From assembly GCA_039189765.1 (NCBI GenBank), contig JBCCYL010000006.1, positions 1 through 64,000 of the forward strand: a stretch of DNA of 64,000 bases, written 5' to 3'. Source of the stretch: Cyanobacteria bacterium P01_F01_bin.150. GTDB lineage: Bacteria; Cyanobacteriota; Cyanobacteriia; CAKZMO01. Shown piece after piece: positions 13,078-62,452 of this stretch. The notes below the pieces were generated by a model, which was given only the letters and a program-made list of their open reading frames with translations, was not told where the DNA came from and ran no database searches. The translations under genes were made by a program, and so were the position numbers. Within the stretch, counting starts at the first letter, position 1. The number at the start of each line of letters is the position of its first letter.

Positions 13078-16000
13078 CTACCCACTAATGGGTAGATGGA
13101 TGCAAAACTCAGTGCCTTTACCCAAGTCAGACCGTACTTCTAGTTGACCGCCATGCTTTTCTACAACAATTTGACGAGCGATCGCCAACCCTAACCCCGT
13201 CCCTTTACCGACTTCCTTAGTGGTGAATAAGTGGTCAAAAATATTCGCTTTAATATCTTCTGGAATACCCCGTCCATTGTCGGCGATCGCCACTTTGACC
13301 TGGTCATTTTCCATCGAAGTACGAATCATCATTCGGTGGGGAGTGGCTTCTATTTCATCAAAGCGACGATTCTGACTGGCATCATCTAGCGCATCAATGG
13401 CATTTGCCAGAATATTCATAAACACCTGATTAAGCTGGCCCGGAAAGCAGTTCACTTCCGGAATATTCCCATAGTCGGTAATCACTTCAATCGAAGGCCG
13501 TTGATCATTTGCTTTAAGGCGATGGCGCAGAATCAGAATCGTGCTATCAATCCCTTCATGCAGGTTAAACGCTTGTTTGGTGTCTTTGTCTGCCCGTGAG
13601 AAGATGCGTAAGCTTTTGCTGATGGCGGTGATGCGATCGCCACTATCTTTCATCGCACGAATCAATTTGGGCAGATCTGTTCGCACATATTCCAAATCCA
13701 CCGCCTCTAATTCATCTTTGAGATCTGAGCTTGGCTGCGGCAGTTCGTCGGCATACCGATCGAGTAACCTAATTAAAGTGCTAATGTACTCTTGGGTAGC
13801 CCCTACATTGCCGATAATACAGCCAACAGGGTTGTTAATTTCATGGGCTACTCCAGCGACTAAATTCCCTAAGGCAGACATTTTCTCGCTTTGGACAATC
13901 TGGAGCTGTGCCTGTTGGAGGTCAGCTAGGGCTTGCTCAGCCTGGTCATACAGCCGAGCATTTTCCAGAGAAATAGCTGCCTGAGTACACAGGCAATTAA
14001 GCACTAAAATCCGGTCTGTTGTAAACACATTGCTCGTTAGTTGATTGCTTAGATATAAAATACCGATGAGCTGCTTTTGGTTGAGAATCGGCAAACACAG
14101 CACACTGTTCGGCTGTGCCTGTCTAAGATAATCATCCACTACGGGCAATGCGGTTTCCAGATTGTCAATAGCAACGACATCCTGTGTATTTTTGACATAT
14201 TGAATCAGTTTGACCGGAAGCTTGGGATTATTGGCTAGTGGCTCAGCATAAAGCTCTATTTCATCTGCTGTAGCGATTTCTCTGTGGGCAGACTGCGCGA
14301 TCGCTCTAAGCGTCCATTCGCCCGTTTCATCCGGCAGGATAAGGGCACAGCGATCGCCCCCTGAATTATGCAGGATAGTTTGGGTGAGTTGACGCAGCAG
14401 TTCATCTATTTGAATCGTGCCAGAGATCGCCTGAGATGCTCTGAGAATGCTGGCAAAATCAAGGGCCTGATTAAAGCTAGCAAAATCAAGAGTCTGATTA
14501 AAACTGGTACTACTGGAACTGTGGTAAGTACTGGTATGAACTGAGGGGGGCGATACTGTTAAGGTCATCAGAGTGTTCAACACATCTTCTGATGACGCTG
14601 TGGGTTGCAAGATGGGCTGCAGCAGTTCTGAATAGAGGGTTTCTAAATTGGCGATTTTAGCTTTGGCCCCCCAGCGGGAGTAACAATAGTAAGCTTCTTG
14701 CATGTAGCCTGCGGCAACTTTTTCTTTGCCCCAATCCAAATAAAACTTGGCTGCGAGTTCGTTAGCCAACGCTTCTTCTTGAATAAAGCGATTTTCCTTT
14801 GCACCAGCAATGGCGCGATCGTATGATTCTATCGCTTCAAGTTTTTGATCTTGAACTCGACATAACTCAGCGATCACTAAGTCGTACTTATGGCGGTAGT
14901 TGATTGGAGAATCACAACACCATTGCTCAAGTTTAGCTCTAGCAATATCGACAATCTCAAGAACGGAATTTCGTCGTTCTGGGTCTGCATCTGGGCACGT
15001 TTGTAAATAGGCTAAGGCTTCGTAAAAATAAACCAAAGGAGGATACAGTAGCCCTAAAGCCTGCTCCATATTTGCCTTTGTGGTCTTAGCCAAAGCGATC
15101 GCCTGCGCATAGTTGCCCAGCAAGCAACAAAGGATCATCTCATGAAGAGCAATCTCAAACGCAGACATTCCTTTGATTTGATTGTTGGGTTCGAACATCT
15201 CCCCGTTGAGCACACACGCATCTTCAGCTTGACCTAGCAAATTTAAGATGGCTTGATAGTAAATGCAATGGGACTCTAAAATAGCATTCTGCTTGAGCTG
15301 ACGCATGACGTTGGCGTAGGTTTCCATTTCTACCACTAAATCTGGAAGTGCTCCACCACAGAAATAATTGTGAGCACAATAGACCTGGGCTGCCAATGCA
15401 GCTGTCTCAATATCTCCTATGGATAAACTCAGTTGATAGGCTCTCAAGAAGGGCGGAACCGTTAGATGAAGAGAATCTCTCCAATGGGTAATAAAGAGGT
15501 GGCAGTACAGTAAGGTCTTAGAAATAACTGTTGGGGATTGATTGGTTTCCAATAACCTGAGTGCCAATTGTGCAAATTCATATCCATCTTGGGTATTTGT
15601 CCCCTCTGAACACAAAATCATGCCATAGCAAGCGTAAGCAAATGGAGAGGTTTCCGTGACTCCATGTTCAAGAGAAAGGTTAATCTGTTTGATATTGATC
15701 AATGCTGAAAGCTGAGGGTTGATCAACATTGCCGTCATTGTCATGCGTGCGAGAAGACTTAGACCGGCTTTAATAGTTGGATCATGGGTTTCTGGAATTG
15801 TCGCCAACTCGGAAATAGAACAGGTTGCTAATTTCGCATTGGTAAATTCCTGTTCTTGAAGAAAGTCATCATGAGTCGGGTTTTCAGGGATATAAATCTT
15901 CAATTGCGCTAGCATCTCTCGTCCAGTCTTGATCGCTTCTGTAAAATTAAGTAGAGCTGAATGCGATTGAAGAATAAACTCATTAACTTTGACTTGATCT

Positions 16001-18534
16001 AACGCATCATTAGACTGCGTTAATAAGACCTGAGCACAAGCTTCCATCTCATTGAAATCACCCCTCAAAAAATTAATTTCCGTCGCCAATTCATAAATAT
16101 GATGGGTCAATGCATAGTCCTTGGACCAGGGGATGGCAGGGAGAAGACTAATGGCAAGATCAATATATTCTTTGGCTGCATTATAAGCAGTAGAATGTCT
16201 GGCCTTTAGTGCTGCATTCAGATTAAGCTGTAGAAGCTCTTGCCGGGCCTCCAGGGCTGTTACTAAATCAATTGCATAATTAAGCTGATTGACTATTCTA
16301 AAAAGGTTAGTCTCTGTTTGAATAGGAGAACGATTCTCTAAAAGACGTTGCCCAATCTTAAGGTGAGTCAGCTTTTTATCTTCTTCCTTTTCAATTAAAA
16401 AGTAGGCAGCCTGCTGGACGCGATCGTGCAAAAAGCGATACTCAACGGTAACCTGCTCAGTGTGAATATCCTTTTCTTCCCATTCTAGGAAAAACTTATA
16501 GGATTGGCTCTGGGGTAACACTAATCCTTCTTGTAGAGTACTCCACAACGTGACTGCCACTTCTTCCATTGGCATTGCACAGACAATGGCTAAGGTTTCC
16601 AAATCAAACTGATTGCCGATACACGCTGCAATTTTTAGAACGTCTTGAGTGGCCTGGGGTAATTTTCGCAGCCTCTCCACCATAAATGCCACTACATCAT
16701 CGGTTAAGGCTAGCTGCTTTACCTGGACTAGATTACATTGCCAATATCTATCTATCGAATCGAATACAATGCAATCTTCAGCGTAAAGTCCCCGCAAAAA
16801 TTGGATAGAAAAGAATGGATTACCTTTAGTTTTTTGATAAACCAAGGTTGATAAAGGTTCAGCTATTTTGGGAGGACACAACAACGTATCAGCGATAATC
16901 TGAGTGATATGGGTTTTCCCCAACGGCTCTAAGGTAATACTATTGCAGGTGGTGGCCTGTTTTTCCATTTCAGTCAATGCCAGTATCAGCGGGTGGCTGG
17001 GAAAAACCTCATTGTCGCGATAAGCCCCTAACACTAGGAGATACCCTGTATCTGCATTTATTTCTGATGCGTTCATCAACAGCTTCAATAGATCCAGTGA
17101 TGCCAGATCGATCCACTGTAAGTCGTCCAGAAAGATGACCAAGGGATGTGCTTTCCTGGTAAACACTCGAACGAACTGCCCAAAGAGCAACTTGAAGCGG
17201 TTTTGGGCGGCATTTCCTGACAGTTCTGGTGCAGGGGGCTGAGGACCCAAGATGATCTCTAGCTCTGGAATTAAGTTGATCAACACCTGAGCATTATCAC
17301 CCAACGCTGTTAGAAGTTGAGCCTTCCATAATTTCAACTCAGCATCGCCCTCACTCAATAATTGCCCAACTAAGTCTCGAAAGGCTTGAACAAATGCACT
17401 GAAGGGAATATTGCGGTTGAACTGGTCGAACTTCGCTTTAATAAAGTATCCTCGCTGTCGCACGATGGGCTTGTGAACTTCGTTAATGACCGCTGTCTTG
17501 CCAACACCAGAGAATCCAGCGACTAACATTAATTCCGGCTGTCCAGCGCTAGCCCGATTAAACGCTTCCAGCAGCGCCGTGACTTCGTTGTGGCGACCAT
17601 AGAGTTTTTCAGGAATGATAAAGCGATCGCTCACATCTCGCTGCCCTAACTGAAACGTTGGAATGGCCCCTTCTACTTGCCATTGACTGAAGCACTGTTC
17701 CAAATCGTGCTTTAGGCCAAGAGCACTCTGGTAGCGATTCTCGGCGTTTTTCTCCATTAGTTTTGACACAAGTGCCGACACCATAGGCGGCACTTGAGGA
17801 TTAACCTGATCCGCCATCTTGGGCTGTTGGGAAATATGACAATGGATTAACTCCAGCGGATCGTCACTGGTAAACGGGAGGTGTCCTGTCAGCAGCTCAT
17901 ACAGCGTTACGCCCAATGCATAAAAGTCCGTGCGATAGTCAATTGCGCGGTTCATCCGCCCCGTTTGTTCGGGCGCGAGGTAAGCCAAGGTTCCGTCTAA
18001 ACTACCGGGACTTTGAAGCGCCTGGGTCTCTTTTGGCAGCAGTGATGCGATGCTAAAGTCAATAAGCCAAATCTTCTTAGAGCCTGGATGAATCAGAATA
18101 TTGGCGGGTTTGATGTCTTTATGGATGACTCGTTGCTGGTGGAGGTTGTGGAGAATATCAACCAGTTGGAGGGCGATCGCCAGAACCTCTTCCACCTCAA
18201 GGGGCTGCTGTTGGCTATAGTCAGACAGCGCAACGCCTCCCACATCCTCCATGATTAATGCATAACTATTGCCGACGGATTCTAGCCCCAGCGGTTTAAC
18301 GAGGCCAGGGATCGATAGATTTTTCGTAATCGTATATTGATTGCGAAACCGCACCAGCTCTCCAAAACTGGGATAATTCTGATTGAGGCATTTGATCACT
18401 ACAGATTGGGCAGAAGTGTTTGCCCATGCACGATAGACCAACGTTCTTGTTCCCTGATAAAAGGATTCAATTTGGGTATATCCCAATACTTGAAGGCCAT
18501 TCTGCGCCAAAAGATTTTCATCTGTGATCTTCAT
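13078..18534 (-). CDS. Trifunctional Ser/Thr kinase - ATPase - GAF - histidine kinase
   Basis: [12 protein letters not shown] and [12 protein letters not shown] (kinase); GFSGVGKT and FLDDLQW (ATPase); GAF; H-box [19 protein letters not shown] and GKGTGLGL. Confidence 0.95.
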
Positions 18535-23788: not shown

Positions 23789-24370
23789 ATGCTAACTCAC
23801 AATTCTAGTTCCATGTCCGTCTCCTATGCCCCAGTCATACCCCCAATCCTTTTTATTGATCCTAATATTGACCAACCTCATTATCTGGTTGTAGGTGCTA
23901 GCCCCAAAGCTGAAGTAATCTTGCTCGACCCTGGGCAGGATGGCATTGAGCAAATTACCAAAGTCCTCCAACAACGTACCAACAGCCCTGACATTCACAT
24001 TATTGCCCACGGTGCCCCAGGCTGTCTCTATTTAGGCAACAGCGAGCTGAGCCTCGATACCCTAGCTAACTATGAAATGCAGCTAAAAAAATGGCAGGGG
24101 CAAATTTGCCTTTACGGCTGTCACGTTGCGGCAGGCGATACCGGTACCGAGTTTCTGAAAAAACTCTACCATCTCACGCAGTCTTCCATCTATGCGTCTA
24201 CGACTAAAATCGGTCATGCATGCTTTGGCGGCAACTGGCACCTTGATGTTCAAATCGGAGCAGGAACCCTAACCGATTCGCCCAATCCATATCCCTCCCT
24301 TCCGATCTCCCCAGTCACCTTAGCTACCTACCCCAGCACCTTGAAAAAATCTCATGACGTACCGCTATAA
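23789..24370 (+). CDS. Stand-alone DUF4347 domain protein
   Basis: ILFIDP...ILLDPGQDGIEQIT...IHIIAHGAPGCLYLG...ICLYGCHVAAG...FL..L...YAST..IG...GGNWHL. RBS gagga/aggaag before the ATG at 23789. Confidence 0.85.
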   Translation: MLTHNSSSMSVSYAPVIPPILFIDPNIDQPHYLVVGASPKAEVILLDPGQDGIEQITKVLQQRTNSPDIHIIAHGAPGCLYLGNSELSLDTLANYEMQLKKWQGQICLYGCHVAAGDTGTEFLKKLYHLTQSSIYASTTKIGHACFGGNWHLDVQIGAGTLTDSPNPYPSLPISPVTLATYPSTLKKSHDVPL

Positions 24371-30790: not shown

Positions 30791-31065
30791 TATCGTGGGT
30801 TCGCTGTTAGGGGAAATTAAGCCATTTCAATCAGAGTTTCCTTAAAAAAGCAGTAGATACATCAATTTACTCCCCACGCTTGCCCGTTTCCGACAGCTGC
30901 GGGTTGATTAATTCTGCAATTTTCCGATACTCATACCCCTCGGCTAAGTTCATTAAATATTTCGTTACCGTTTTTAAGAGTCAGGCACAATTTCCAACAA
31001 CGCCTTCACCTGCCGACCATCTTATGGCGGTCGCAACTCGGGTTAGGACATTTTAGCCCTGCTTA

Positions 31066-31143
31066 CCTGACAAACCCTGACACTTTACCCGACAGAACCT
31101 GACACTTCCTGTCTAGTTTCTGCTGTGGATTTTGACGATAGTG
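31066..31143 (+). promoter_or_regulatory. CYGAC-box promoter upstream of the first FG-GAP gene
   Basis: CCTGAC/CCCGAC at 31066, 31076, 31088 and 31098, then ttcctgtctagtttctg, then GATAGTG at 31137. Homologous to 23664-23731. Confidence 0.65.
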
Positions 31144-31272
31144 GGGTCAACAGAAATAAGCAGTCAATTACGTTTGCATACATGGCGATCGCGTCAGCCT
31201 GGTATTTGGTGACTAAAATCGCAGCGACTAAAACGGCACACACACAACATCAATTTGATACGGGGAATTCCT

Positions 31273-34050: not shown

Positions 34051-34147
34051 TTGACTTTATTCATTTGATTGAAGGTCAGGGTACAGAAATCTCAGCAACG
34101 ACAAACAGTACACACACAACATACATTTGATACTAGGAGGAGTTCCC

Positions 34148-36934: not shown

Positions 36935-39260
36935 ACTCGTTATCTTCTGACAGGAGTGGTTCGAGCAATTCCGCAATCTTGCGATACTGATATCCCCTGG
37001 CTAAGTTCATCAGATATTTTGTTACCGCTGTATGGGGCTTAGGCATGGTTGCCAGTAAATCCTTTACCTGCTGACCATCTAACTTAAATGCGGCTAGATG
37101 TAGCTCATACCGCCAGTCATGGGGCATGGCAGTGAGTTGGGCTGCGATCGCTTTGGGGCTTAAGGGAACCGTTGTGATCACCCTTCTGACTCCTTGAGAC
37201 GCTGCTTTTGCGGCTGACTCAGCTTCGGCAGGGTCTACCTGAACGTTAGCGGTGAAGCTAAAGACAGTTCCTTTCCCCACCTGACTAGAAACCTTGATAT
37301 CTCCTCCCATCAGCTGTACAAGCTGTTTACTAATGGCTAAGCCTAATCCAGTTCCTGTTTTTGTATTTTCACCACTTTCCGTTTGCACAAAAGGCTCAAA
37401 AAGTTTGTGTAGCTCCGATGCTGCAATCCCGTCCCCCGTATCTTCTACTTCAAACCTTAACTCAAGTGCCTGTGGCAGCTGACGATCTTCCACTCGCAGA
37501 ACAATGGTTCCAGCGTGGGTAAATTTGAGGGCATTGCTCAGCAAGTTAATTAGGATCTGCCGCAGCTTGGGGGCATCGCCAATCAGCTTCTGGGGAATCG
37601 TTTGGGAAACCTCAACGACAAACGTCAGTCTCTTTTGTTCCATCCGGATCCGAAACAAGGCCTCAACGGTTTCAATCAAATCCTTCAGCTCAAAGGACTC
37701 TTTATTTAAGGTTTGTTTATCGGATTCCAGTTTCGTTAGGGTCAAAATATCGTTGATTAGCCCCAGGAAATGTTCTCCAGCACTATTAATTGAGCGCACG
37801 CGGCTTTGGTTATTCTCAGAGAGTGTGTGGTCTTGAGCCATGAGCTGACTGAACCCCAAAATAGCGTTGAGCGGAGTACGTAACTCATGACTCATCTGCG
37901 CTAAAAAACGACTCTTGGCTCGACTGGCAGCCTCAGCGGCCTCTCTAGCCTGGCCTAACTCAATATTCGATTGCTGAAGTTTGGCATTGGATTGTTGAAG
38001 TTCTGAGGTACGCTCAGCCACTTTAATTTCCAATTCTGACTTTGCCTGTTCCAGGAGCGCAACCATTTGCTGCTGCGCTTTGATTTTGGTTTGAATAACG
38101 CGATCATATTGATAAAAAGCCGCTAGCCCCGCACTATTCAAAATTAGCCCGGCAGCTGCGGGAACTAAAGGTATCCACCATCCCACCAACAGTGCTAAAT
38201 AGCTGATACCCGTCACCCCAACAGCGCTAATCGAGACCCAAAACAAACTTTGGAGGGGCGATCGCCCATATCTTGCAAACCCAATCCCTAGAAGTCCCCA
38301 GACTAAAATCCATAGATACTCGACCCATTCAGGCCAACTCTTAATCAGAGGACGTTGTTCAAGGGCTGCATGGACAATTTGGCTTGCGGCATGAGCCTGA
38401 ATTTCCACTCCATAGACAAAGTTATCGTCCTGGTTAACGGTGGAGGGGGTAGCGACATTAAAGTGATCCTGGATACTGGAGGCGGTGCTGCCGATTAGGA
38501 CAATGCGATCGCGCACCCATTCAGGGTCGACATTGCCTGCTAAAACATCTCGAAATGAAACCGCCCGAAAGGCATTGGCCCCCTTACGAAAGTTCAGCAG
38601 CATTTGCATATCAGCTCCCCCCGCATTCGTGCCAACGTAGCTACCAAAATTTGCATAAACTCGGGGCAACTCAGCCTTACCAAATCTCATGGTGGAGCGA
38701 TCGCGCACCCCACTTTCCAATGGAATCCCTTCAGCGTCTAAATACGCCTTGGCTAGCAATAGGCCCAGGGAAAATCGAAATCCCCCATCCGTCTGCACAC
38801 CTAACATCGCCCGCCGTAGTCGACCATCCTCATCTGGAGGAACATCAACAAACCCAATCTGATCAGAGGGGAGGTTGGGCGGTGGTGCAACTTTTGGCGG
38901 CAAAACCCGTTCAATCCCGATTAGGTTGTCCATCGACTGCATTGTCATCGCCAATTCAGAGTAGCCCGGCTCAACGGGCAAATCTCTAAATAAATCAAGG
39001 CCGATGGCACGGGGCTGATGGCGCTGCAGATTTTGCAGCACTAGGGCCAACTGTTGATCAGGAATCGGATAGGTCCCTACTGCTCGAATCGATTGCTCAT
39101 CAATGCCTACTAGCAAGAGCCGCTCGTCTGGGGATTCAGAGGGGTGCGATCTTAAAAAGGCATCCAAAATCCGCCACTCTAATAATTGAAACGCCCCGGC
39201 TAATCGTCCCCCTATAATCAGCAGCAAAAACAGCAAGCCGGATAGCAGCCCAAACTGCAT
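36924..39260 (-). CDS. CHASE2-domain sensor histidine kinase (start uncertain; frame open to 39482)
   Basis: CHASE2 motifs LLLVGIDE, IGLDLFRD, DGRLRR, VLIG, GVEIQAH. Three TM helices. H-box MSHELRTPLN. LRQILINLLSNA and GTGLGL. Confidence 0.9.
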   Translation of the reverse strand: MQFGLLSGLLFLLLIIGGRLAGAFQLLEWRILDAFLRSHPSESPDERLLLVGIDEQSIRAVGTYPIPDQQLALVLQNLQRHQPRAIGLDLFRDLPVEPGYSELAMTMQSMDNLIGIERVLPPKVAPPPNLPSDQIGFVDVPPDEDGRLRRAMLGVQTDGGFRFSLGLLLAKAYLDAEGIPLESGVRDRSTMRFGKAELPRVYANFGSYVGTNAGGADMQMLLNFRKGANAFRAVSFRDVLAGNVDPEWVRDRIVLIGSTASSIQDHFNVATPSTVNQDDNFVYGVEIQAHAASQIVHAALEQRPLIKSWPEWVEYLWILVWGLLGIGFARYGRSPLQSLFWVSISAVGVTGISYLALLVGWWIPLVPAAAGLILNSAGLAAFYQYDRVIQTKIKAQQQMVALLEQAKSELEIKVAERTSELQQSNAKLQQSNIELGQAREAAEAASRAKSRFLAQMSHELRTPLNAILGFSQLMAQDHTLSENNQSRVRSINSAGEHFLGLINDILTLTKLESDKQTLNKESFELKDLIETVEALFRIRMEQKRLTFVVEVSQTIPQKLIGDAPKLRQILINLLSNALKFTHAGTIVLRVEDRQLPQALELRFEVEDTGDGIAASELHKLFEPFVQTESGENTKTGTGLGLAISKQLVQLMGGDIKVSSQVGKGTVFSFTANVQVDPAEAESAAKAASQGVRRVITTVPLSPKAIAAQLTAMPHDWRYELHLAAFKLDGQQVKDLLATMPKPHTAVTKYLMNLARGYQYRKIAELLEPLLSEDNESTE

Positions 39261-39505
39261 CCCGTGACGACCTCCAGTCCGCTGATGTTTGCCCAATGAA
39301 AAACTCCAATGCCCAAATCGGATGTCAGTTGCCACAAGCACTTTAAAAAAATTTAAATCAAAAACCGGAATGGTCCCCAATACTCTGGAATTTATAAGGA
39401 AGCATCTAAAACACCAAAGATGAAGAGGACTATTCCCCCTTCTCTTCGCGATTCTCTGCACTACCCAATGATAGCTAACCATTTTAGCCCGTTAGGAGTT
39501 TAAAT

Positions 39506-40333
39506 TTGCGCAAGTTAATCTTAGATCTATTCCTTGGCCCCTCTGTTAAACGGTTATTTGGGTTCCGCATTAAGACGGACCGATTGAACGATGGTGTCGA
39601 TGCTTTGCGCCCACGCAATTGGCTTCAAGGTAGGCCCCGTCAACTGGCAGCAGGTCTATTCTTTACCTCTTTGACGATGGTTCCTGCCACTGCATGGGCT
39701 CAACCCTATCAACCCCCTACGGGAGATCCCCCGAGTGGTTCTATTTTATCGAGTGGAACCCGTGATAGCTGTGGCGAAAACTATGAGATTCCGCTAACGG
39801 TTTTGGCCCCAGCTCAGCACGTGGGGCAAACCAGTACCACGACTCCAACGCTCACTTGGTTTGTGCCAACCACCGATTCTTATCGCATCCAGCTTTCCCT
39901 TTACACGATTCATGACAATCAGCCGCCTGCATTACTACAGCAAATTCAGTACGTAGAAGATGACGCAGGAATCGTCAGTTTTACGCTGCCAGAGGAAGAG
40001 TTCCAGCTCAATCCAGGGCAGCGTTATCTGTGGGAGGTGAACCTTGCCTGCACGCCAGACGCTCCTATGTATAGCCAACTGTTTGTTTCCGAGTTAGAGA
40101 TCCAAGAACCGTCTGCCTCGCTGCTTTCGGGTATTGCGGCCGCTCAAACACCGCTGGAAAGAGCGGAAATTTATGCGGGTGCGGGGTACTGGTATGACAC
40201 CCTACGCGAAGCTTTAATTGCTGCCCAAAATCCAGATACTGATGATTTAGCAAGGTCTTTACTGTATCAGTTGGCTGAGTCTGAAGGGGGTATACATGGT
40301 CAGTTTTTAACCCAAATCGCAGACACAATGTAA
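39506..40333 (+). CDS. DUF928 domain protein
   Basis: YQPPTGDPPSG...SSGTR...LTVLAP...GQT.TT.PTL.WFVP...Y.W...C...YA.AG.WYDTL; sits next to a CHASE2 gene. Confidence 0.85.
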   Translation: MRKLILDLFLGPSVKRLFGFRIKTDRLNDGVDALRPRNWLQGRPRQLAAGLFFTSLTMVPATAWAQPYQPPTGDPPSGSILSSGTRDSCGENYEIPLTVLAPAQHVGQTSTTTPTLTWFVPTTDSYRIQLSLYTIHDNQPPALLQQIQYVEDDAGIVSFTLPEEEFQLNPGQRYLWEVNLACTPDAPMYSQLFVSELEIQEPSASLLSGIAAAQTPLERAEIYAGAGYWYDTLREALIAAQNPDTDDLARSLLYQLAESEGGIHGQFLTQIADTM

Positions 40334-41038: not shown

Positions 41039-41444
41039 TTTTTGGCAACAAAGAAAGAGAACCTTCGAACTCAGTGTCCAAGAAGATGGAATCAGTCTGT
41101 CTTGTTCTAACTGTAGTGGGACTCGATAGCAGAAACCTCATAAAACTCATCCCCTGACCCCATAAGAAATCTCATAAATAGGTTTTGACCTTAACCGAAA
41201 CGAAATAACGGAAAATCAGTGAGCTTCGCCACGAGAAAGCAGCCAATTTTTGCGTAGGATGGGTTACGCTGTCGCTAACACACCCTACGCTGTAGATAAA
41301 CTAATTTTTTCGAGGTACGGACATAATGGCTAACGAGAAAGTAAATAAATATCTCGTTTGGGCTATCCATTACTGTGTAAGGATATATGGTCGTAAGTAG
41401 AATCAAATATAGCCCTTACCATCTAAAGTGTGTCCTAAAATTCC

Positions 41445-42788
41445 ATGAATCTCGATTCGCTCCTTGAGGTTGTTAATTGCAACTTGATAGAGGGCAACAG
41501 TCGTCCTCTGAGTTCTCCAGAGGTAATAATTCTGCGAGGTGTTTGGCAGTACCAAACCTATACCCAGATTGCATTAGAGGAAGGTTATAGTTCTGGTTAC
41601 TTTACTAATGTAGTGGCTCCAGAACTGTGGAAGCGCTTGTCTCAGCTAACGGGGCAACATATCACCAAAAAAAATTGCCGCAAGTTGCTAGAGGGCTATG
41701 CTGAAGCCCAGCAGAATCGACCAGTGACGCTGGTAGAAACTAGCGACAACGCACCTAGAGTGGAGCATCAGGGTAATAGTGGTGTCGTTCGATATCCGAG
41801 TGGTTCTGTTCCCCTGGATTCTCCCCATTACATGGAGCGATCGCCCGTTGAGACCCAAGCCTATGACGAAATCCAAAAACCGGGAGCACTTATCCGCATT
41901 AAAGCCCCCCAGGAGATGGGAAAAACATCATTGCTTCTACGAATTTTAGATCGAGCCAATGCGTTAGGCTATCGCACGGTGAGTCTAAATGTGCAGCAGG
42001 TGGATGAGTCGATTCTTCAAGACCTCAACCGCTTTTTGCGATGGCTTTGTGCCAATGTCACCCGTCAACTCAAGTTAACCTCAAAGCTAGATGACTATTG
42101 GGATGAAGATATTGGCGGCAAAATTAGCTGTACGCTTTATTTCCAAGACTATTTACTGGAGGACGTGAAAGAGCCGTTTGTGCTGGCGTTGGATGAGGTC
42201 AATCAGCTTTTTGAACATCCACAGGTGGCTAAAGATGTATTGCCATTGTTGCGATCGTGGTATGAAGAGGCGAAGCGATTGCCCATTTGGCGCAAGTTGC
42301 GATTGGTTGTGGTGCATTCCACCGAAATTTATGTGCCCCTGAATCTAAAGCAGTCCCCCTTTAATGTGGGGTTACCGCTACAGTTAGAGTGTTTCAATCC
42401 AGACCAAATTGAACAATTAGCTCAGCAGTATGGGTTGAATTGGCAAAACGATGAGGCTCAACAGTTAATGACCCTGGTGGGCGGACATCCGGCCCTCGTT
42501 AATATTGCCCTGTATCATCTCAGTTGTAATGAGATTACCCTAGAACAACTGTTGGAAACAGCTAATCAAACGACGGGGATTTATCATTCCCATCTCCAGC
42601 GGCATCGGGCACGATTAGAGGAGCAGCCTGAATTACGCCTCAGTTTAGATGCGATTACTGCGGCGGCGGAGCCTGTTTCGTTAGAACCCATGATTACCTA
42701 TCAGCTATACAGCATGGGGTTGATTAAACAGGTGGGCGATAAGGTGATGCCAAGCTGTGAGTTATATCGATCGTCGTTCGCGCATTAG
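41445..42788 (+). CDS. HTH + AAA_35 (AAA-like) ATPase protein
   Basis: N-terminal LS..E..IL.GVWQ..TY.QIA...GYS..Y....APELW..LS...G..ITKKN. AAA_35 motifs GSVPLDSPHYMER, IKAPQEMGKTSL, LALDEVN, SPFNVG and GGHPAL. Confidence 0.88.
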   Translation: MNLDSLLEVVNCNLIEGNSRPLSSPEVIILRGVWQYQTYTQIALEEGYSSGYFTNVVAPELWKRLSQLTGQHITKKNCRKLLEGYAEAQQNRPVTLVETSDNAPRVEHQGNSGVVRYPSGSVPLDSPHYMERSPVETQAYDEIQKPGALIRIKAPQEMGKTSLLLRILDRANALGYRTVSLNVQQVDESILQDLNRFLRWLCANVTRQLKLTSKLDDYWDEDIGGKISCTLYFQDYLLEDVKEPFVLALDEVNQLFEHPQVAKDVLPLLRSWYEEAKRLPIWRKLRLVVVHSTEIYVPLNLKQSPFNVGLPLQLECFNPDQIEQLAQQYGLNWQNDEAQQLMTLVGGHPALVNIALYHLSCNEITLEQLLETANQTTGIYHSHLQRHRARLEEQPELRLSLDAITAAAEPVSLEPMITYQLYSMGLIKQVGDKVMPSCELYRSSFAH

Positions 42789-42899
42789 GGATGTGCGGGG
42801 AAATCACATACCAATGTTGCGTAGGATGGGCAAAACGAATGTGTGCCCATCAGCCAAACGTTTTGATGGGCACGTCCTATCGTCCTTTGCCCATCCTAC
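42786..42899. repeat. Partial MITE-like element containing a 79-bp GTAG REP-like nested palindrome
   Basis: gtaggatgggcaaa...tttgcccatcctac (42821-42899) is nearly identical to 62344-62422. The left flank tagggatgtgcggggaaatcacatacc matches 62309-62336. Confidence 0.8.
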
Positions 42900-42948
42900 T
42901 CCCGGTACTAGCCCACCTAAACGATACACAACAGCTCAAATTAGGATC

Positions 42949-45900
42949 ATGCTAAAACTTCAAGGGATTCAGATCAGGGAAACACTTTTCTCCAGTGATA
43001 AAACAGTGGTTTATCGAGGGATGAGCACAAAAGATGAGCGATCGCTCATCCTCAAGTTTCTGAACCTTCAGTACCCCTCTTTGAATAACCTGGCTCAGTA
43101 TAGACAAGAGCATAGCATTCTTAACTCTTTAAATTCTGACAGTGTCATAAAGACTTATGGCATTCAAGAGTACGAAAATAGTTTGGTGATCTTTTTAGAA
43201 GATTTTGGCGGCAGTTCCTTAAAAGAGATCGTCTCAGAAACAACATTCGGTTTAGATGATTTTCTGTCGATCGGAATTGACCTGGCGCAGGGCTTAGCGG
43301 ATATTCACAGCGCTAACATTATTCATAAAGATATTAATCCATCTAATATCGTTTACAACCCTGACACTAAGCAAGCAAAGCTCATTGACTTTGGCATTTC
43401 TACGATCTTATCCAACGAAGCCTCTGTTGCATGTCCCCCACGCAAAATACAGGGAACGTTGCCTTATATTTCTCCTGAACAGACGGGGCGAATGAATCGA
43501 GTTATTGACTATCGAACGGATTTTTATTCCCTGGGGATCAGCCTATATGAACTGTTGACCTGCCAACTGCCCTTTCAGACCAATGACGTCATGGAATTGG
43601 TGCATTGTCATATTGCCAAATCCCCTGAGCCTCCCCATCGTTTAATCGGAGAAGAGCGGTGCCCCAGAATCGTTTCAGATATTATTATGAAGCTGCTCTC
43701 GAAGACTGCTGAGGACCGTTATCAAAGTGCCTTGGGTCTGAAAGCTGACCTGGAAAGTTGCCTGGAACAGCTCCGCCAAAGCGGCCATATTTCCAGTTTT
43801 GTCCTCGCTAGTCGTGATATGGTGAGCACGTTTCAGATTCCCCAGAAGCTTTACGGGCGAGAGCCGGAGGTTCAGGCTCTTTTAGCGAGCTTTGAGAGTG
43901 CGAGTCAAGGACAATCTGAGACCGTCTTGATTGCAGGCTATTCAGGAATTGGTAAATCCGCATTAGTCAATGAAATTCATAAACCCATTCTTCAAAAGAA
44001 GGGATATTTTATTGCGGGTAAGTTTGATCAAGTGAATCGAGATACGCCGTATGATGGGTTTGTTCATGCCTTCAAAGATTTAATCCATCAGCTATTAACG
44101 GAGAGTGAAGATCAGATTGATGCCTGGAGAGATCAAATTTTAGAAGCCCTTGGCGATAATGTTCAGGTTATTTTAGGCGTGATCTCTGAGCTGGAATTAA
44201 TTCTGGGGCCGCAACAATATACTCCAGCATTAGAGGTGATTGAAGACCAAAATCGATTCAATTTATTTTTCCAAAAAATCATTCAAGTCTTTGCGACAGA
44301 TACCCATCCTCTCGTCATTTTTTTAGATGATCTACAGTGGGCAGATTCAGCGTCTTTAAGATTACTGAAATTATTGGCGACGAATCACATTGAGAGTAAG
44401 TCTTTACTGATTATTGGAGCTTATAGAGATAATGAAGTGTCGGAAAATAGTCTTGTGGGTATCACCTTAAATGATATTTTTCAGGACTCCACTACCGTCA
44501 AGACCATTACGCTGGCTCCTCTCAAAATTAATGAAGTCAATCGTCTAGTGGCCGATACCCTGAAGTCACCACCCGAAAGAATAGGGTTATTGGCTGACAT
44601 CATCTTTAGTAAAGCCAATGGGAACCCATTTTTCACTATTCAGTTGCTAAAGTCACTTTACGACGATAACAGCATCTTTTTTGGACTGTCTGATGCAGGG
44701 GAAACCCAAAACGCTTGGCAATGGAATCTTGAACAAATCCAACAAGCAAGTATTACCGATAATGTGGTCGATCTTTTATTAAAGAGGATCGCCAAACTAG
44801 ATGAGAAAGGACAACATCTTTTAAGCGTAGCGGCGTGTATTGGCAATCACTTTACCCTTGATACATTGTCATCTGTTACAGAGGCTGCTGTTACAGATGA
44901 CCCTTTGCCCTCTTTACTCGCTGGCCTTTGGCAATCTATTCAGGATGAGTTGATTATCCCGTTAGACAATGCAAAAGAACTTTCCGTACTATTGAACTCC
45001 AGTAGAGATCAACGTATAGAGTTATTGGGTGACCCAGATCCCAGGGTTCTTAAAGAACCCTGGGATCTAAATCCGGCCTATGTCAGTGCCATTGATCTGA
45101 GCTCTGTTTCATATAAATTTTTGCATGATAGAGTGCAGCAAGCGGCCTATACGCTCTCCTCTGATTCCTATCACAAAGAAATTCATTATAGAATTGGCAT
45201 CTTTTTACTGAATAAATATAGAAATAACAATCTCAACAAACATATATTTGATGTTGTAAATCACCTCAATATCGGCGTTGATCATCTTTCTGAAAGGGAA
45301 AGAGCAGAACTTGTTGAGTTGAATCTGACGGCGGCTAAAAAAGCGAAATCGACAACCGCCTACGAACTAGCCCTCGAATATTGTCAGGCCAGCTTAGCCC
45401 TCCTCAAGGTGGATTCTTGGTTAACTCAATACCCATTGACCTTAGAAATATACATCAACACGATAGAGACCCAGGTATTGACCGGAGATTACCATGATGC
45501 AGATACTCTTTTAGAGATTGTCTTAGATCATGTTAGAGATAAACTAGACGAAATTAGAATCTACGAAATTAAAATAAAGTCATTATTTTCACAATACTTC
45601 TTGGAAGAGGCTATAGACGTTTCCCTTATCGCCTTAGAAAAGTTAGGGTTTATTAAGATAAAGCCAGTAGAAAATCCATCAATTTTAGTAGGGACATTAC
45701 GTAGACGGTTGACGTTGAAGAATCAGGAAATAGAGGACTTAGAACACTTCCCCTCTATGGACAATCCCTATCAGATTGCATCTCTTAGAATTGTCTTAAC
45801 GGTTATGCCTCCCCTATATCTTATTAAGGCAGACCTGCTTCCTTCGGCCATCTGTTCAATGGCGACGCTTTGTATAAAGTATGGAAATTCTTCCCTCTCT

Positions 45901-48798
45901 CCTGTTGTTTATGCTTGGCTTGCTTTGTATCTGTGTGGAACTTTTGGGGATATTGATTCTGGAATACGGCTCTCAACCGTATCTTTAAAATTACTGAGAA
46001 AGAATCGCCATCCAAGTATTGTTACCAAAGTTTTATCTATGATCCCTGGCGCTGTTACTCATTGGAAAGAACCTATTCAGACAACCATTACCCCTTTGCG
46101 GGAAGCCTTTCTAACAGGCATTGAGGTGGGTGATATCGAATATGCTTCTCAGGCATCTATTATATATTGCCAAAGCCTTGTTTTTGCGGGTGAGCCATTG
46201 GATTTTGTTTATGGACAATATCAAGAGCACTTTGCTTTTGTGAATAAGTTCAAGCAATCTTATTTTATTTTATACATCAAGATAATTCAAGAAATAGTAA
46301 TAAGTTTGGTCGATGAGGCCCATTCTGATGACAGGATAGATTTAGATGATGCCATCGAAATGGTGAAAGGGAATGGAGGTGGAGGTACACTAACAGCAAC
46401 TTATTTGTCTTTAATAATTATAAACTACTTTTCGAAAGCATATACTTGTTCTTTGAACTCTGCTTTAGAAGGAAAAAAGTATAAGAACTATGCTATGGAG
46501 CTTAGTATGAGACCTCAAACTAATTTTTATTCTTCCCTTTCAATCTTGGCATATTGTGCCATGGAGCAAGCATCTCACAATAGGAATGACTTGCTAAAAG
46601 AAGTACTCTCCAACCAAAAAGATATGCGTCGTTGGGCAAAGCATTCTCCCGAGAACTTCCAGCACAAGCATGATTTGGTTGAAGCCGAAAAAGCAAGGGT
46701 TTTAGGAAAAATATTAAAGGCTGAAGAACTGTATGAGAAATCAATTCAAGGCGCGAAAAAGAATAAATTTATTCATGAAGAGGCGTTAGCCTATGAACGA
46801 GCGGGTGAGTTTTATCTCTCTTTAGATCGAGAAGAAATTGGCAGGCTTTACTTAAAAAAATCCCATCACTGCTATTCCCGCTGGGGCGCAACCGCGAAAG
46901 TAAAGCAAATGGAAGCCGAATACCCCCATTATTTTGTCGGTTCATCCCAAAAAGGACTCTCTCGTTATAGTCGTACAACCACCACCACTACAACGACAGA
47001 AACCGAGGGCACAGATTTAGATTTAGCGACGATTCTTAAGGCCTCTCAAACGATTTCTAGTGAAATAAGGCTAGCCAGCCTTCTAGAGAAATTGATTGCG
47101 ATTTTAATTGAAAATGCAGGGGCACAAACAGGCATTCTCATCTTAAATAGTGATGGCAATTGGTATATCGAAGCGAAAGGAAGCCTCAATGAGGATACGA
47201 CGCTTCTCCAATCGATCCCCATACACTGGATCGATCCTGAGACATCGGCACCTACTTTACCTGCAACCATCATTAATTACATTAGTCATACTCAAGAAAC
47301 GATTGTTTTAGACGATGCGGTAAATCAAGGACAATTTACGACTGATCCCTATATTGTCGCTCATCAAAGTCAGTCAATCCTGTGTACCCCGTTGCTCAAC
47401 CAAGGGCAGTTAAAAGGGATGATCTATTTGGAAAATAACGTAACCACTGGAGCCTTTACCGCAGACCGGGTCGAATTGCTCAATATCTTGGCAGCTCAAG
47501 CGGCGATCGCCATCGATAATTCCAGACTCTACCAAACCCTAGAACAACGGGTAGAAGAGCGCACCAAAGAATTATCCCAAACCTTGGATGTTTTGAAAGC
47601 AACCCAGGCCGAACTGATCTTTGAAAATGACCTGCTCAGAGACGATAGCCAACCCTCAACCTTCAATTACCAAGTCGGGGGCAGTCTGCCGATGGATTCT
47701 CCAACCTATGTCGTCCGCTCCGCCGATCGCACCCTCTACAAAACCCTTAGCCAAGGGGAATTTTGTTATGTCCTCAATGCGCGGCAGATGGGCAAATCCA
47801 GTCTGATGGTGCGGATGATGAATCATCTCCAAAGCGAAGGCGTGAATTGTGCCGCCATTGATATGACGCGGATTGGTAGCGAAAACATCACCCCTGAGCA
47901 ATGGTATAAAGGACTGGCCGTAGAACTCTGGCGGAGCTTCGGCTTACTGCGAAAAGTGAACCTGAAAAAGTGGTGGGGCGATCGCCTCGATATTTCCCCC
48001 ATTCAGCGCTTAGGCCAGTTTATAGAAGAAGTGATCCTCGTCGAGGTCAGCAAAGACGCTGAAGACGCCCCCTCTTCCCAAAAGATTGTCTTATTTATCG
48101 ATGAAATTGACAGCGTTTTGGGCTTAGATTTCCCCGTCAGCGACTTCTTCCGCCTGATTCGCTCCTGCTACAACCAACGCACGCTGATGCCGGAGTATCA
48201 GCGATTAACCTTTGCCTTCTTTGGAGTCGCTACCCCATCGGAATTGATTAGCGATCGCCGCCTTACCCCCTTCAATATTGGCCAAGCGATTCAACTCGAC
48301 GGCTTTAAAGAACATGAAGCCCAGCCCCTGCTCAACGGCCTCACCGATAAAGTCACCAATCCCCAAGTCCTCTTAAAAGAAATCCTGCACTGGACCGGAG
48401 GACAACCCTTCCTCACCCAAAAAGTCTGTGAATTCATTCGCCAATCCTCTGAACCCATCCCCATCAACCAAGAAGCCGCCTGGGTTGAAGCCCTAGTGCG
48501 AAAAAATATCATCGAAAATTGGGAAGCCCAGGATGAACCGGAGCATTTAAAGACGATACGCGATCGCATCCTTAAAAACGACCAATATACCCCCCAACTC
48601 CTGACCCTCTATCAACAAGTCCTCAACCAACCAGAGGTGATAGCAACTGATAGCGCAGAAGAGAAGGAGCTAGTGTTATCAGGCTTGGTGATCAAGGAAG
48701 ATAGTATTCTGAAGGTCCGTAACCAAATTTATCTAGAAATCTTTAATCGACCATGGATAGAGAATGCATTATTCGTCTTCGCTTTAACTCTCGATTGA
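42949..48798 (+). CDS. Ser/Thr kinase - ATPase - GAF protein with a C-terminal AAA_35 domain in place of a histidine kinase
   Basis: HKDINPSN, IDFG and [20 protein letters not shown] and FLDDLQW; GAF; then YQVGGSL..DSPTYVVRSAD, NARQMGKSSL, FIDEID, TPFNIG, WTGGQPFLTQ. The ATG at 42949 is preferred because the upstream extension is repeat DNA. Confidence 0.92.
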   Translation: MLKLQGIQIRETLFSSDKTVVYRGMSTKDERSLILKFLNLQYPSLNNLAQYRQEHSILNSLNSDSVIKTYGIQEYENSLVIFLEDFGGSSLKEIVSETTFGLDDFLSIGIDLAQGLADIHSANIIHKDINPSNIVYNPDTKQAKLIDFGISTILSNEASVACPPRKIQGTLPYISPEQTGRMNRVIDYRTDFYSLGISLYELLTCQLPFQTNDVMELVHCHIAKSPEPPHRLIGEERCPRIVSDIIMKLLSKTAEDRYQSALGLKADLESCLEQLRQSGHISSFVLASRDMVSTFQIPQKLYGREPEVQALLASFESASQGQSETVLIAGYSGIGKSALVNEIHKPILQKKGYFIAGKFDQVNRDTPYDGFVHAFKDLIHQLLTESEDQIDAWRDQILEALGDNVQVILGVISELELILGPQQYTPALEVIEDQNRFNLFFQKIIQVFATDTHPLVIFLDDLQWADSASLRLLKLLATNHIESKSLLIIGAYRDNEVSENSLVGITLNDIFQDSTTVKTITLAPLKINEVNRLVADTLKSPPERIGLLADIIFSKANGNPFFTIQLLKSLYDDNSIFFGLSDAGETQNAWQWNLEQIQQASITDNVVDLLLKRIAKLDEKGQHLLSVAACIGNHFTLDTLSSVTEAAVTDDPLPSLLAGLWQSIQDELIIPLDNAKELSVLLNSSRDQRIELLGDPDPRVLKEPWDLNPAYVSAIDLSSVSYKFLHDRVQQAAYTLSSDSYHKEIHYRIGIFLLNKYRNNNLNKHIFDVVNHLNIGVDHLSERERAELVELNLTAAKKAKSTTAYELALEYCQASLALLKVDSWLTQYPLTLEIYINTIETQVLTGDYHDADTLLEIVLDHVRDKLDEIRIYEIKIKSLFSQYFLEEAIDVSLIALEKLGFIKIKPVENPSILVGTLRRRLTLKNQEIEDLEHFPSMDNPYQIASLRIVLTVMPPLYLIKADLLPSAICSMATLCIKYGNSSLSPVVYAWLALYLCGTFGDIDSGIRLSTVSLKLLRKNRHPSIVTKVLSMIPGAVTHWKEPIQTTITPLREAFLTGIEVGDIEYASQASIIYCQSLVFAGEPLDFVYGQYQEHFAFVNKFKQSYFILYIKIIQEIVISLVDEAHSDDRIDLDDAIEMVKGNGGGGTLTATYLSLIIINYFSKAYTCSLNSALEGKKYKNYAMELSMRPQTNFYSSLSILAYCAMEQASHNRNDLLKEVLSNQKDMRRWAKHSPENFQHKHDLVEAEKARVLGKILKAEELYEKSIQGAKKNKFIHEEALAYERAGEFYLSLDREEIGRLYLKKSHHCYSRWGATAKVKQMEAEYPHYFVGSSQKGLSRYSRTTTTTTTTETEGTDLDLATILKASQTISSEIRLASLLEKLIAILIENAGAQTGILILNSDGNWYIEAKGSLNEDTTLLQSIPIHWIDPETSAPTLPATIINYISHTQETIVLDDAVNQGQFTTDPYIVAHQSQSILCTPLLNQGQLKGMIYLENNVTTGAFTADRVELLNILAAQAAIAIDNSRLYQTLEQRVEERTKELSQTLDVLKATQAELIFENDLLRDDSQPSTFNYQVGGSLPMDSPTYVVRSADRTLYKTLSQGEFCYVLNARQMGKSSLMVRMMNHLQSEGVNCAAIDMTRIGSENITPEQWYKGLAVELWRSFGLLRKVNLKKWWGDRLDISPIQRLGQFIEEVILVEVSKDAEDAPSSQKIVLFIDEIDSVLGLDFPVSDFFRLIRSCYNQRTLMPEYQRLTFAFFGVATPSELISDRRLTPFNIGQAIQLDGFKEHEAQPLLNGLTDKVTNPQVLLKEILHWTGGQPFLTQKVCEFIRQSSEPIPINQEAAWVEALVRKNIIENWEAQDEPEHLKTIRDRILKNDQYTPQLLTLYQQVLNQPEVIATDSAEEKELVLSGLVIKEDSILKVRNQIYLEIFNRPWIENALFVFALTLD

Positions 48799-62309: not shown

Positions 62310-62452
62310 AGGGAATTGCGGGAAAATAACATACCAATTTGGCGTAGGATGGGCAAAACGAACGTGTGCCCATCAGCTCAACGTTTAGATGGTCACGTCC
62401 TATCGTCCTTTGCCCATCCTACGTCCGGTGTCTTATTTCTTTGCAAGTCCCT
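62310..62452. mobile_element. MITE-like element (~143 bp) with imperfect TIRs enclosing a GTAG REP-like nested palindrome
   Basis: Left end agggaattgcgggaaaataa versus reverse complement of the right end agggacttgcaaagaaataa. The internal 79-bp palindrome is shared with 42821-42899. No transposase in the window. Confidence 0.6.

Follow-up and report, generated by a model that had tools for sequence, protein, structure and literature searches.

How can a giant cyanobacterial Ser/Thr kinase hand its signal on when the histidine kinase module that ends its paralogue has been exchanged for another domain? The question is raised by two adjacent genes, P0001 and P0002, in a stretch of 64,000 nucleotides from Cyanobacteria bacterium P01_F01_bin.150 (contig JBCCYL010000006.1, positions 1 to 64,000), which we call the window. 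Both genes encode proteins with an AAA_35 domain, preceded by a helix-turn-helix (HTH) type domain in P0001 and by kinase and GAF domains in P0002. The original prediction for this locus had proposed that the paired AAA_35 domains act as transmitter and receiver in place of HisKA and REC. We give a probability of about 0.55 to a somewhat different reading, in which P0001 and P0002 form a split relay of signal transduction ATPases with numerous domains (STAND), comparable to nucleotide-binding leucine-rich repeat receptors (NLRs) and with a transcriptional output.

Both open reading frames (ORFs) were found where they had been predicted, Pfam confirmed their domain order, and the quoted strings LEQRVEERTKEL, RQMGKSS, FIDEID, QEMGKTS and LDEVN are all present in the sequences. 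In P0001, AAA_35 (PF14516) covers residues 117-446 (E 2.3e-148, 494 bits; 494.7 bits in the genome search). In P0002, with residues numbered from the GTG at 42757, Pkinase (84-323), AAA_16 (364-553) and GAF (1439-1586) precede an AAA_35 domain at 1642-1997, which scores far below that of P0001 (E 4.1e-34, 118 bits; 121.9 bits in the genome search). Both domains are above the curated cut-off of 27 bits. HisKA, HATPase_c and REC gave no match in either protein (Pfam, E <= 0.01). The pair has neither the HisKA/HATPase transmitter nor the REC receiver of a two-component system, and P0002 is not a dual kinase of the HstK type, as its kinase and GAF domains are present but AAA_35 stands in the HisKA-HATPase position.

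The genome (10.6 Mb, 350 contigs) contains 49 PF14516 matches in two score classes. Class A (about 290-496 bits, ORFs of about 450-760 amino acids, aa) includes P0001, and class B (about 70-126 bits, ORFs of 500-2000 aa) includes P0002. Pairing was counted among the 119 highest-scoring rows (at least 59.6 bits) from this genome and 20 related ones, lower rows such as a 53.6-bit class-B fragment at a contig end being dropped; a class-A and a class-B gene within 6 kb were regarded as a pair. In the relatives, a class-B gene was found within this distance of 34 of the 40 class-A genes, in all 34 cases downstream on the same strand, and 34 of the 38 class-B genes had a class-A gene nearby. The expectation that AAA_35 genes occur as adjacent output-type and sensor-type pairs was thus borne out. 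In the genome of the window, 11 of 21 class-A genes are paired (10 real cases, since one, on C54, consists of two fragments of a broken gene), as are 11 of 20 class-B genes. Some of the unpaired AAA_35 genes in the census lie at contig ends.

The two classes carry different partner domains. Class-B proteins of this genome mostly start with AAA_35, followed by 5-14 WD40 repeats (six proteins), CHASE2 (two), a cyclase and CHASE2 (one), three GAF domains (one) or no Pfam match (seven); AAA_35 is C-terminal, after Pkinase, AAA_16 and GAF, only in P0002 and C121:12202-17691. In other loci class-B AAA_35 also stands behind REC-PAS, GAF or cyclic nucleotide (cNMP) binding domains. Among 20 class-A N-termini tested in this genome, 12 have the same N-terminal domain as P0001 (N-dom1), and others have an XRE-type HTH (three), TIR (three, one a weak match) or CHAT-TIR (one); elsewhere, CHAT, cyclase-TIR and a protein kinase (the Pkinase-AAA_35 protein of locus L138) are found. 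By these inventories, class A is therefore the output class and class B the sensor class. STAND NTPases (nucleoside triphosphatases) are typically fused to variable effector domains and to sensor or repeat domains, and here these fusions are split over two genes: the two are paralogous and linked, with the sensor on one and the effector on the other, as in paired nucleotide-binding oligomerisation domain (NOD) proteins. Because the usual class B has an N-terminal NTPase with WD40, CHASE2 or GAF, and class A often carries TIR, CHAT or cyclase-TIR, the pair in the window is one variant of a general split STAND module and not a special replacement of HisKA and REC.

A second kinase-type pair in the genome is convergent (C121:10420-17691), and its class-A protein, which bears an XRE-type HTH, is not part of the P0001 clade. 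Apparently broken class-A copies were seen at C85:10667-12327, C80:3870-5333, C199:887-2128 and C54:7410-9003, with N-dom1 and AAA_35 in separate frames, internal stops or shortened genes, which suggests turnover within an expanded family.

The AlphaFold2 (AF2) model of P0001 (mean predicted local distance difference test score, pLDDT, 88.7) opens with a five-helix N-terminal domain, which a disordered linker at residues 93-112 joins to the P-loop domain; a helical domain follows, and the C-terminus is a winged helix, modelled as helix-strand-strand-helix. The best Foldseek matches were the archaeal ATPases 2qen (E 2e-10) and 2fna (E 1e-9), which we take to be members of the Pfam family ATPase_2; several AAA_35 proteins also give weak ATPase_2 matches. 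They were followed, at about 1e-7 to 1e-6, by ORC/Cdc6, the NRC4 and ZAR1 resistosomes, Avs3/4 and CED-4, and the Sr35 resistosome and Apaf-1 were among the matches as well. As modelled, the AAA_35 fold is STAND/NLR-like, with a P-loop NTPase, a helical domain and a winged helix. At the sequence level P0001 matched no solved structure at E <= 1 and no NCBIfam family, and the MalT-family model gave no match in the Pfam and NCBIfam scans.

Walker A and B motifs are retained in both AAA_35 domains, as had been claimed: MGKT/S and LDEV in class A, RQMGKSS and DEID in class B. The class-B motifs are invariant in 29 kinase-type orthologues, and in the genome of the window they are strictly preserved in each class-B copy that has the region. 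All of 27 class-A sequences retain the Walker A lysine, and nearly all retain the first Walker B aspartate. The second Walker B acidic residue varies among the class-A proteins of this genome (DE, DD, DN, EE, NE, DT), P0001 having DE.

N-dom1 modelled alone had a pLDDT of 93.8. The top rows of a structural comparison with VIA-align were RcsB (Z 7.6), ChrA (7.4), NarL (7.2) and TraR (7.2), with sigma region 4 following later, and nearly all of the top 15 rows were LuxR-type DNA-binding domains (Z 7.6-6.4, root-mean-square deviation 1.9-3.8 Å, 63-82 residues). The HTH that had been predicted for P0001 is backed by this LuxR/NarL-like predicted fold, at Z values of at most 7.6. Pfam GerE had no match in P0001, and a precomputed annotation labels the domain as PF26355. 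About 27 ORFs of the genome begin with N-dom1, always at the N-terminus (e.g. C29:57268-58851, C93:29022-30428 and C118:21210-24842), and continue with AAA_35, REC, REC-GGDEF, NB-ARC/NACHT, WD40 arrays or TPR; it is thus placed before switch modules such as REC and NB-ARC/NACHT. A role of N-dom1 as a docking domain for giant kinases was rejected, because the class-A protein of the kinase-type pair on C121 has an XRE-type HTH instead and because N-dom1 also heads REC, NB-ARC/NACHT and WD40 proteins. Several P0001 orthologues (P0133, P0171, P0205 and others) go under the name “serine/threonine protein kinase” at NCBI or “AraC-like DNA-binding protein” at JGI. They hold only PF26355 and AAA_35 and no kinase domain, and the names were probably carried over from the neighbouring kinase.

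The window also contains a His-kinase paralogue of P0002, P0003, with its partner P0004, and Pfam agreed with the earlier description of this module as a HisKA-HATPase sensor with a REC partner. A GGDEF domain behind the REC of P0004 had been overlooked; it is probably degenerate and not an active cyclase, because its signature reads RYGVITF instead of GGDEF/GGEEF. P0002 and P0003 are collinear, with 36% identity over 1569 columns and including about 870 residues of helical scaffold after the AAA_16 domain of P0002. Homology ends with the final GAF helix, at residue 1597 of P0002 and 1534 of P0003, and AAA_35 is therefore found exactly where P0003 has HisKA, as had been proposed. The linker between GAF and AAA_35, which is conserved among P0002 orthologues, is presumably a coiled coil, a label that we adopt from the original prediction. 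On the partner side, phmmer against a small set found homology between the N-termini of P0001 and P0004 (E 2.8e-12), so that both partners do have the same HTH-type domain.

Sharing a position with HisKA does not make AAA_35 its equivalent. Five Nostoc loci (L105, L108, L112, L113 and L116) each have a kinase ORF of 1824 aa and, after it on the same strand, an ORF of 732-740 aa that ends in a class-B AAA_35 domain, 65-66% identical to that of P0002. Domains were read for the kinase ORFs of L105 and L112, both Pkinase-AAA_16-GAF-HisKA-HATPase, and for the downstream ORF of L105, which is REC-PAS-AAA_35(B); the L112 genome has a class-A gene 4.9 kb upstream of the kinase. This order places class-B AAA_35 downstream of the phosphorelay, after both HisKA and REC, and the proposed equivalence with HisKA/REC had to be given up. 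Judging from the sequences, AAA_35(B) takes the position of HisKA in P0002 yet appears to be a further relay step. The Nostoc loci would then be a naturally split version, with a phosphorelay feeding into the AAA_35 module, and the direct fusion of GAF to AAA_35 in P0002 would bypass the phosphorelay step.

The paralogues also bear on the role of the Ser/Thr kinase. Contact between the AAA_35 modules, or simply co-expression, might bring P0001 to the kinase of P0002, with phosphorylation as the switch. Such a kinase-substrate relay would fit the catalytic motifs of the P0002 kinase, which are kept and conserved in the orthogroup, the position of the disordered P0001 linker between HTH and NTPase, and the existence of the L138 protein. 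We nevertheless consider it improbable. The class-B clade of P0002 is also found behind kinase-free REC-PAS, behind GAF alone and behind a cNMP-binding domain, and the majority of A/B pairs have no kinase at all. Moreover, the His-kinase paralogues retain the same Ser/Thr kinase, which therefore looks like an input rather than an output.

The form represented by P0002 is common in cyanobacteria. Using its residues 1600-2013 as query among long proteins, 6094 of 8000 scored proteins had E <= 1e-10. Among the 120 matches listed, roughly 100 (counted by eye) had the order Pkinase, AAA_16, GAF and AAA_35 and a length of 1880-2110 aa; the hosts include Nostoc, Moorena, Scytonema, Fischerella, Leptolyngbya, Pleurocapsa, Symploca and others. 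The search with P0001 yielded 5604 proteins within the E-value limit among the candidates scored. When the phylum was sampled evenly, 41 of the 52 genomes belonging to the same class had class-B-like matches (E <= 1e-100), as against none of the other 98 genomes, and 12-13 of the 52 had full-length kinase-type matches. The AAA_35 domains of the kinase type are 57-89% identical across many cyanobacterial families (mean column identity 71% in 29 orthologous C-terminal modules), and P0001 orthologues are 61-71% identical. The kinase-linked class B thus appears, from these comparisons, to be a conserved cyanobacterial orthogroup.

To describe the surroundings of kinase-type genes, 80 loci were fetched with 10-kb flanks (upstream reach about 5.4 kb), 48 of which had a complete kinase-AAA_35 ORF. 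A class-A gene was present in the stored flanks of 19 of these 48: upstream on the same strand (11 loci), upstream and divergent (2), downstream and convergent (4) or downstream on the same strand (2). The tight arrangement of the window recurs only in L099, where the class-A protein carries CHAT, and in the fragmentary L104, which is outside the 48. The remaining 10 loci with class A upstream on the same strand have a gap of 2-4.8 kb between the class-A gene and the kinase gene. Such gaps hold cargo genes. In the closest relative, L061 (class A 90% and class B 87-89% identical to the window pair), these encode a YcaO-ThiF protein and an amidohydrolase, and in other relatives two lipoxygenases, TP_methylase and TPR proteins, an ECF sigma factor or RPE65. 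Elsewhere in the genome of the window, the sole homologue of the L061 YcaO-ThiF cargo is 49% identical and located on C19, where neither a kinase nor an AAA_35 gene is nearby; it was rejected as displaced cargo.

Quick or FastTree phylogenies were built from 46 class-A and 101 class-B domains. In the class-A tree, 16 of the 20 neighbours of kinase-type class B, including P0001, belong to one clade of 19 (SH-aLRT 97), although part of this signal is shared vertical descent, because the loci were chosen through class B. In the class-B tree, 27 sequences of the N-terminal type form one set (support 98), separate from the kinase type. Taken together, the trees agree with the earlier expectation of distinct sensor-type and HTH-type clades that pair with each other. 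Natural fusions were also found. B-A fusions in one ORF occur in two genomes (L079:5383-7569 and L080:16685-19411), and in the class-A tree no sequence stands closer to P0001 than their A half. XRE-A-A tandems make up 10 of the 119 top P0001 relatives (P0145, P0149, P0151 and others among the joined-domain proteins).

Prediction of an A-B complex gave an ipSAE of 0.55 (runs 0.57, 0.54 and 0.55), compared with 0.00 for the best control, with a contact agreement of at least 79% and a partner pLDDT of at least 82. When the tool was calibrated, 116 of the 157 solved complexes reached the pass mark, as did 2 of the 215 mismatched pairs; among these passes, scores of 0.60 or less came from only 18 solved complexes and from both mismatches. 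By this calibration, scores in this range are more often wrong than right unless pairing is likely beforehand. The original proposal of a transmitter and a receiver acting through hetero-oligomerisation is therefore backed in part, by the conserved pairing and the clades, while binding itself is only weakly predicted; the B-A fusions would agree with it.

On this basis we picture the relay as follows. P0002 would be the sensor half, in which the kinase-AAA_16-scaffold-GAF part integrates the signal and passes it through the post-GAF linker to the C-terminal class-B NTPase. The output half would be P0001, in which a LuxR-like HTH takes the effector position ahead of the class-A NTPase. We infer that the signal runs in this direction and that, upon activation, the class-B module exchanges or binds nucleotide and nucleates a hetero-oligomer with class-A modules, much as a sensor NLR acts on a helper NLR. 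The hetero-oligomer would cluster the HTH domains, let them act on DNA and so switch the transcription of target genes; in many relatives, the variable enzyme genes between the class-A and the kinase gene are the likely targets.

Several observations weigh against this relay. Physical binding of A to B depends on a single weak computational pass. The HTH assignment is also soft, as N-dom1 had no Foldseek match at E <= 0.001 and its Z values, all below 8, are middling for a small helical domain. No shared operator was found upstream of 14 orthologous class-A genes, where a naive count of shared words gave only AT-rich words and words common to close relatives, and the window pair itself has no cargo between its genes. 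Linkage is looser at kinase-type loci than in ordinary pairs, the remaining 29 of the 48 having no class-A gene in their flanks. A genome-wide check of five such loci located a class-A gene in two, on the same strand and 6-8 kb upstream, and none nearby in the other three, which include a complete Moorena chromosome. In the genome of the window, 10 class-A and 9 class-B genes have no partner within 6 kb. Four kinase-partnered class-A genes (that of C121, that of L124 and the downstream ones of L079 and L080) fall outside the main clade, and the B-A fusions have a B half from a class-B clade other than that of P0002.

Some of these points could also be explained if P0001 were a self-contained STAND transcription factor and P0002 a self-contained kinase, adjacent through duplication or co-regulation and making no contact. 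The unpaired genes, the kinase-type loci without class A, the varying geometry (upstream, downstream, convergent or divergent) and the weak complex prediction would all be expected of independent neighbours. We regard this explanation as unlikely, since in 34 of 40 cases in the relatives the class-B gene lies directly downstream on the same strand, proteins of the P0001 type have no sensor domain of their own, class-A partners cluster into clades, B-A and A-A fusions exist, and the controls of the complex prediction scored 0.00. A defence or programmed-cell-death module, with the HTH as an accessory to the defensive response, would suit the TIR, CHAT, CHAT-TIR and cyclase-TIR forms of class A, the CHAT partner in L099 and the position of NLR, Avs and CED-4 folds right after the archaeal ATPases, but we find it quite implausible, as the identities among class-B domains and among P0001 orthologues are unusually high for defence genes, this pair has an HTH as its output, relatives carry metabolic cargo, and PADLOC matched only TIR, CHAT, WD40-repeat and kinase regions and never an AAA_35 module (in PADLOC-DB v2, P0001 and three of four scanned class-B partners matched no family, L044 matched only through its WD40 region and P0002 only through its kinase).

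The split STAND relay may also be extended beyond this pair. Class-B AAA_35 could be a portable transmitter that works with nearly any input, placed after GAF, PAS, cNMP-binding or phospho-accepting REC inputs or before WD40 or CHASE2, which templates the assembly of class-A outputs with HTH, TIR, protease or cyclase domains. This would amount to a third general mode of signalling in cyanobacteria beside one- and two-component systems, a prokaryotic sensor/helper-NLR relay used for routine regulation as well as cell death. We put this extension forward only tentatively, as a possibility somewhat short of even odds.

Table 1. Positions of the gene pair, its parts and the paralogous module in the window.
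Feature	Position	Strand	Basis
P0001, class-A gene, HTH-AAA_35 output protein, 447 aa	41445..42788	+	ORF, Pfam, AF2
N-dom1, five-helix N-terminal domain, residues 1-90, LuxR/NarL-like HTH (predicted)	41445..41714	+	AF2, VIA-align
Class-A AAA_35 NTPase module of P0001: P-loop, helical domain, C-terminal winged helix	41793..42782	+	Pfam, AF2, Foldseek
Spacer, 161 nt, with nested perfect hairpin (dispersed palindromic repeat copy)	42789..42949	+	Inverted-repeat search
P0002, class-B gene, giant sensor kinase with terminal AAA_35, about 1949 aa from ATG 42950 (probable start)	42950..48798	+	
Ser/Thr protein kinase domain of P0002	43006..43725	+	Pfam Pkinase E 1.1e-36; HKD, DFG and SPE motifs in sequence
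AAA_16 NTPase domain of P0002	43846..44415	+	Pfam E 3.8e-45
GAF domain of P0002	47071..47514	+	Pfam E 3.6e-14; final stretch homologous to P0003
GAF-to-AAA_35 linker of P0002, swap point	47545..47679	+	P0003 homology ends at residue 1597
Class-B AAA_35 NTPase module of P0002	47680..48747	+	Pfam; Walker motifs
P0003, HstK-type paralogue, Pkinase-AAA_16-GAF-HisKA-HATPase	13078..18534	-	Pfam
P0004, N-dom1 HTH-REC-GGDEF partner, divergent from P0003	18888..20237	+	Pfam

P0002 probably starts at ATG 42950 (MLKLQG) rather than at GTG 42757, because the alignment with its paralogue begins at residue 66 and the closest orthologue has 1945 aa. With this start, the two genes would not overlap and would be separated by the spacer listed in Table 1. 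The spacer contains a nested, perfect hairpin of about 80 nt at 42821-42899, and the long GTG-started ORF runs through it. The 100-nt segment around it (42811-42910) has a folding energy of -46 kcal/mol; no terminator-like site was flagged in the spacer. Since the arm motif GTAGGATGGGCAAA occurs 100 times in the genome, on both strands, against about 0.08 occurrences expected, the hairpin is a dispersed palindromic element of the kind of repetitive extragenic palindromes (REP) or miniature inverted-repeat transposable elements (MITE). Elements of the same type lie at 62344-62413 and 41252-41290, and with so many copies genome-wide a function of the hairpin as a specific operator was rejected.

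Upstream of the pair, the window encodes a 2141-aa TPS-TPR-CHAT protein, two FG-GAP/RTX proteins, a CHASE2 His kinase and a DUF928 protein (24365-40333). Downstream comes a series of genes for hybrid His kinases and response regulators, together with a REC-GGDEF-EAL protein. No tie to the pair was seen among the window neighbours on either side.

Filamentous and colonial cyanobacteria are rich both in giant Ser/Thr kinase-GAF proteins and in AAA_35 proteins. If the split STAND relay is correct, it would explain how such kinases reach the genome without a His-Asp phosphorelay, tie them to variable secondary-metabolism cassettes (YcaO, lipoxygenase, carotenoid oxygenase), and mean that the paired-NLR logic of plant and animal immunity also serves ordinary transcription control in bacteria. 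The fused GAF-AAA_35 form, the split HisKA / REC-PAS-AAA_35 form and the fused B-A proteins provide a natural series in which the direction of signalling can be tested.

A literature search found PF14516 and PF26355 in no paper, and AAA_35 gave only unrelated token matches among the best 20 of 317. “Npun2340” and “MNS clade” occurred only in PMC8195603; a passage of this paper, citing Leipe 2004, names an “MNS clade (Npun2340/2341 family)” of STAND NTPases after two adjacent Nostoc punctiforme genes, a family to which AAA_35 may correspond. The view that the A/B pair is new thus stands in so far as no description of it was found, with a possible mention of the family in the STAND literature as a lead (PMC8195603). 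What the window contributes is the fused kinase-GAF-AAA_35 form beside a His-kinase paralogue, together with its link to the HisKA / REC-PAS-AAA_35 form of Nostoc.

Among known systems, the archaeal ATPases 2qen and 2fna are like P0001 in having a P-loop NTPase, a helical domain and a winged helix, but they are single genes without the split into output and sensor. A two-gene nSTAND2 system in which each gene encodes a STAND NTPase has been predicted (Kaur et al. 2021, PMC8195603, Figure 6C legend); as far as that legend goes, it differs from the A/B pair in its NTPase family and its counter-invader context. The dual Ser/Thr-His kinases of the HstK type (cbSTKIII, Zhang et al. 2007, PMC2176072) have the whole kinase-AAA_16-scaffold-GAF input in common with P0002. 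In passages of that paper, STK-GAF proteins without HisKA (e.g. Tery_3863) fall inside the HstK cluster, and neither AAA_35 nor the C-terminal domain is named. The likeness extends to the partners, P0001 bearing the same N-terminal HTH as the REC partner of P0003, but unlike HstK and two-component systems P0001 and P0002 have no HisKA, HATPase or REC. Tery_3863 may be an orthologue of P0002, which is only our guess.

In STAND activators of the MalT/AfsR/LAL type, a LuxR-type HTH is under the control of the NTPase, and transcription is switched when a signal brings about oligomerisation; NOD, sensor and C-terminal HTH are parts of one polypeptide. P0001 differs in that its HTH is N-terminal, its sensor is on a second protein and its NOD belongs to another family. 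Sensor/helper NLR pairs (NAIP-NLRC4, or plant sensor NLRs with NRC) are like the A/B pair in consisting of two paralogous NOD proteins, one sensor and one effector, and NRC resistosomes are among the fold matches of P0001. They use NACHT or NB-ARC, whereas the A/B pair uses AAA_35, in linked bacterial genes that we call an operon, and has an HTH instead of a death domain. NAIP and NRC systems are activated by hetero-oligomerisation, which by analogy may serve as a working model for the A/B pair. Overall, the pair resembles paired immune receptors more than it does a classical two-component system.

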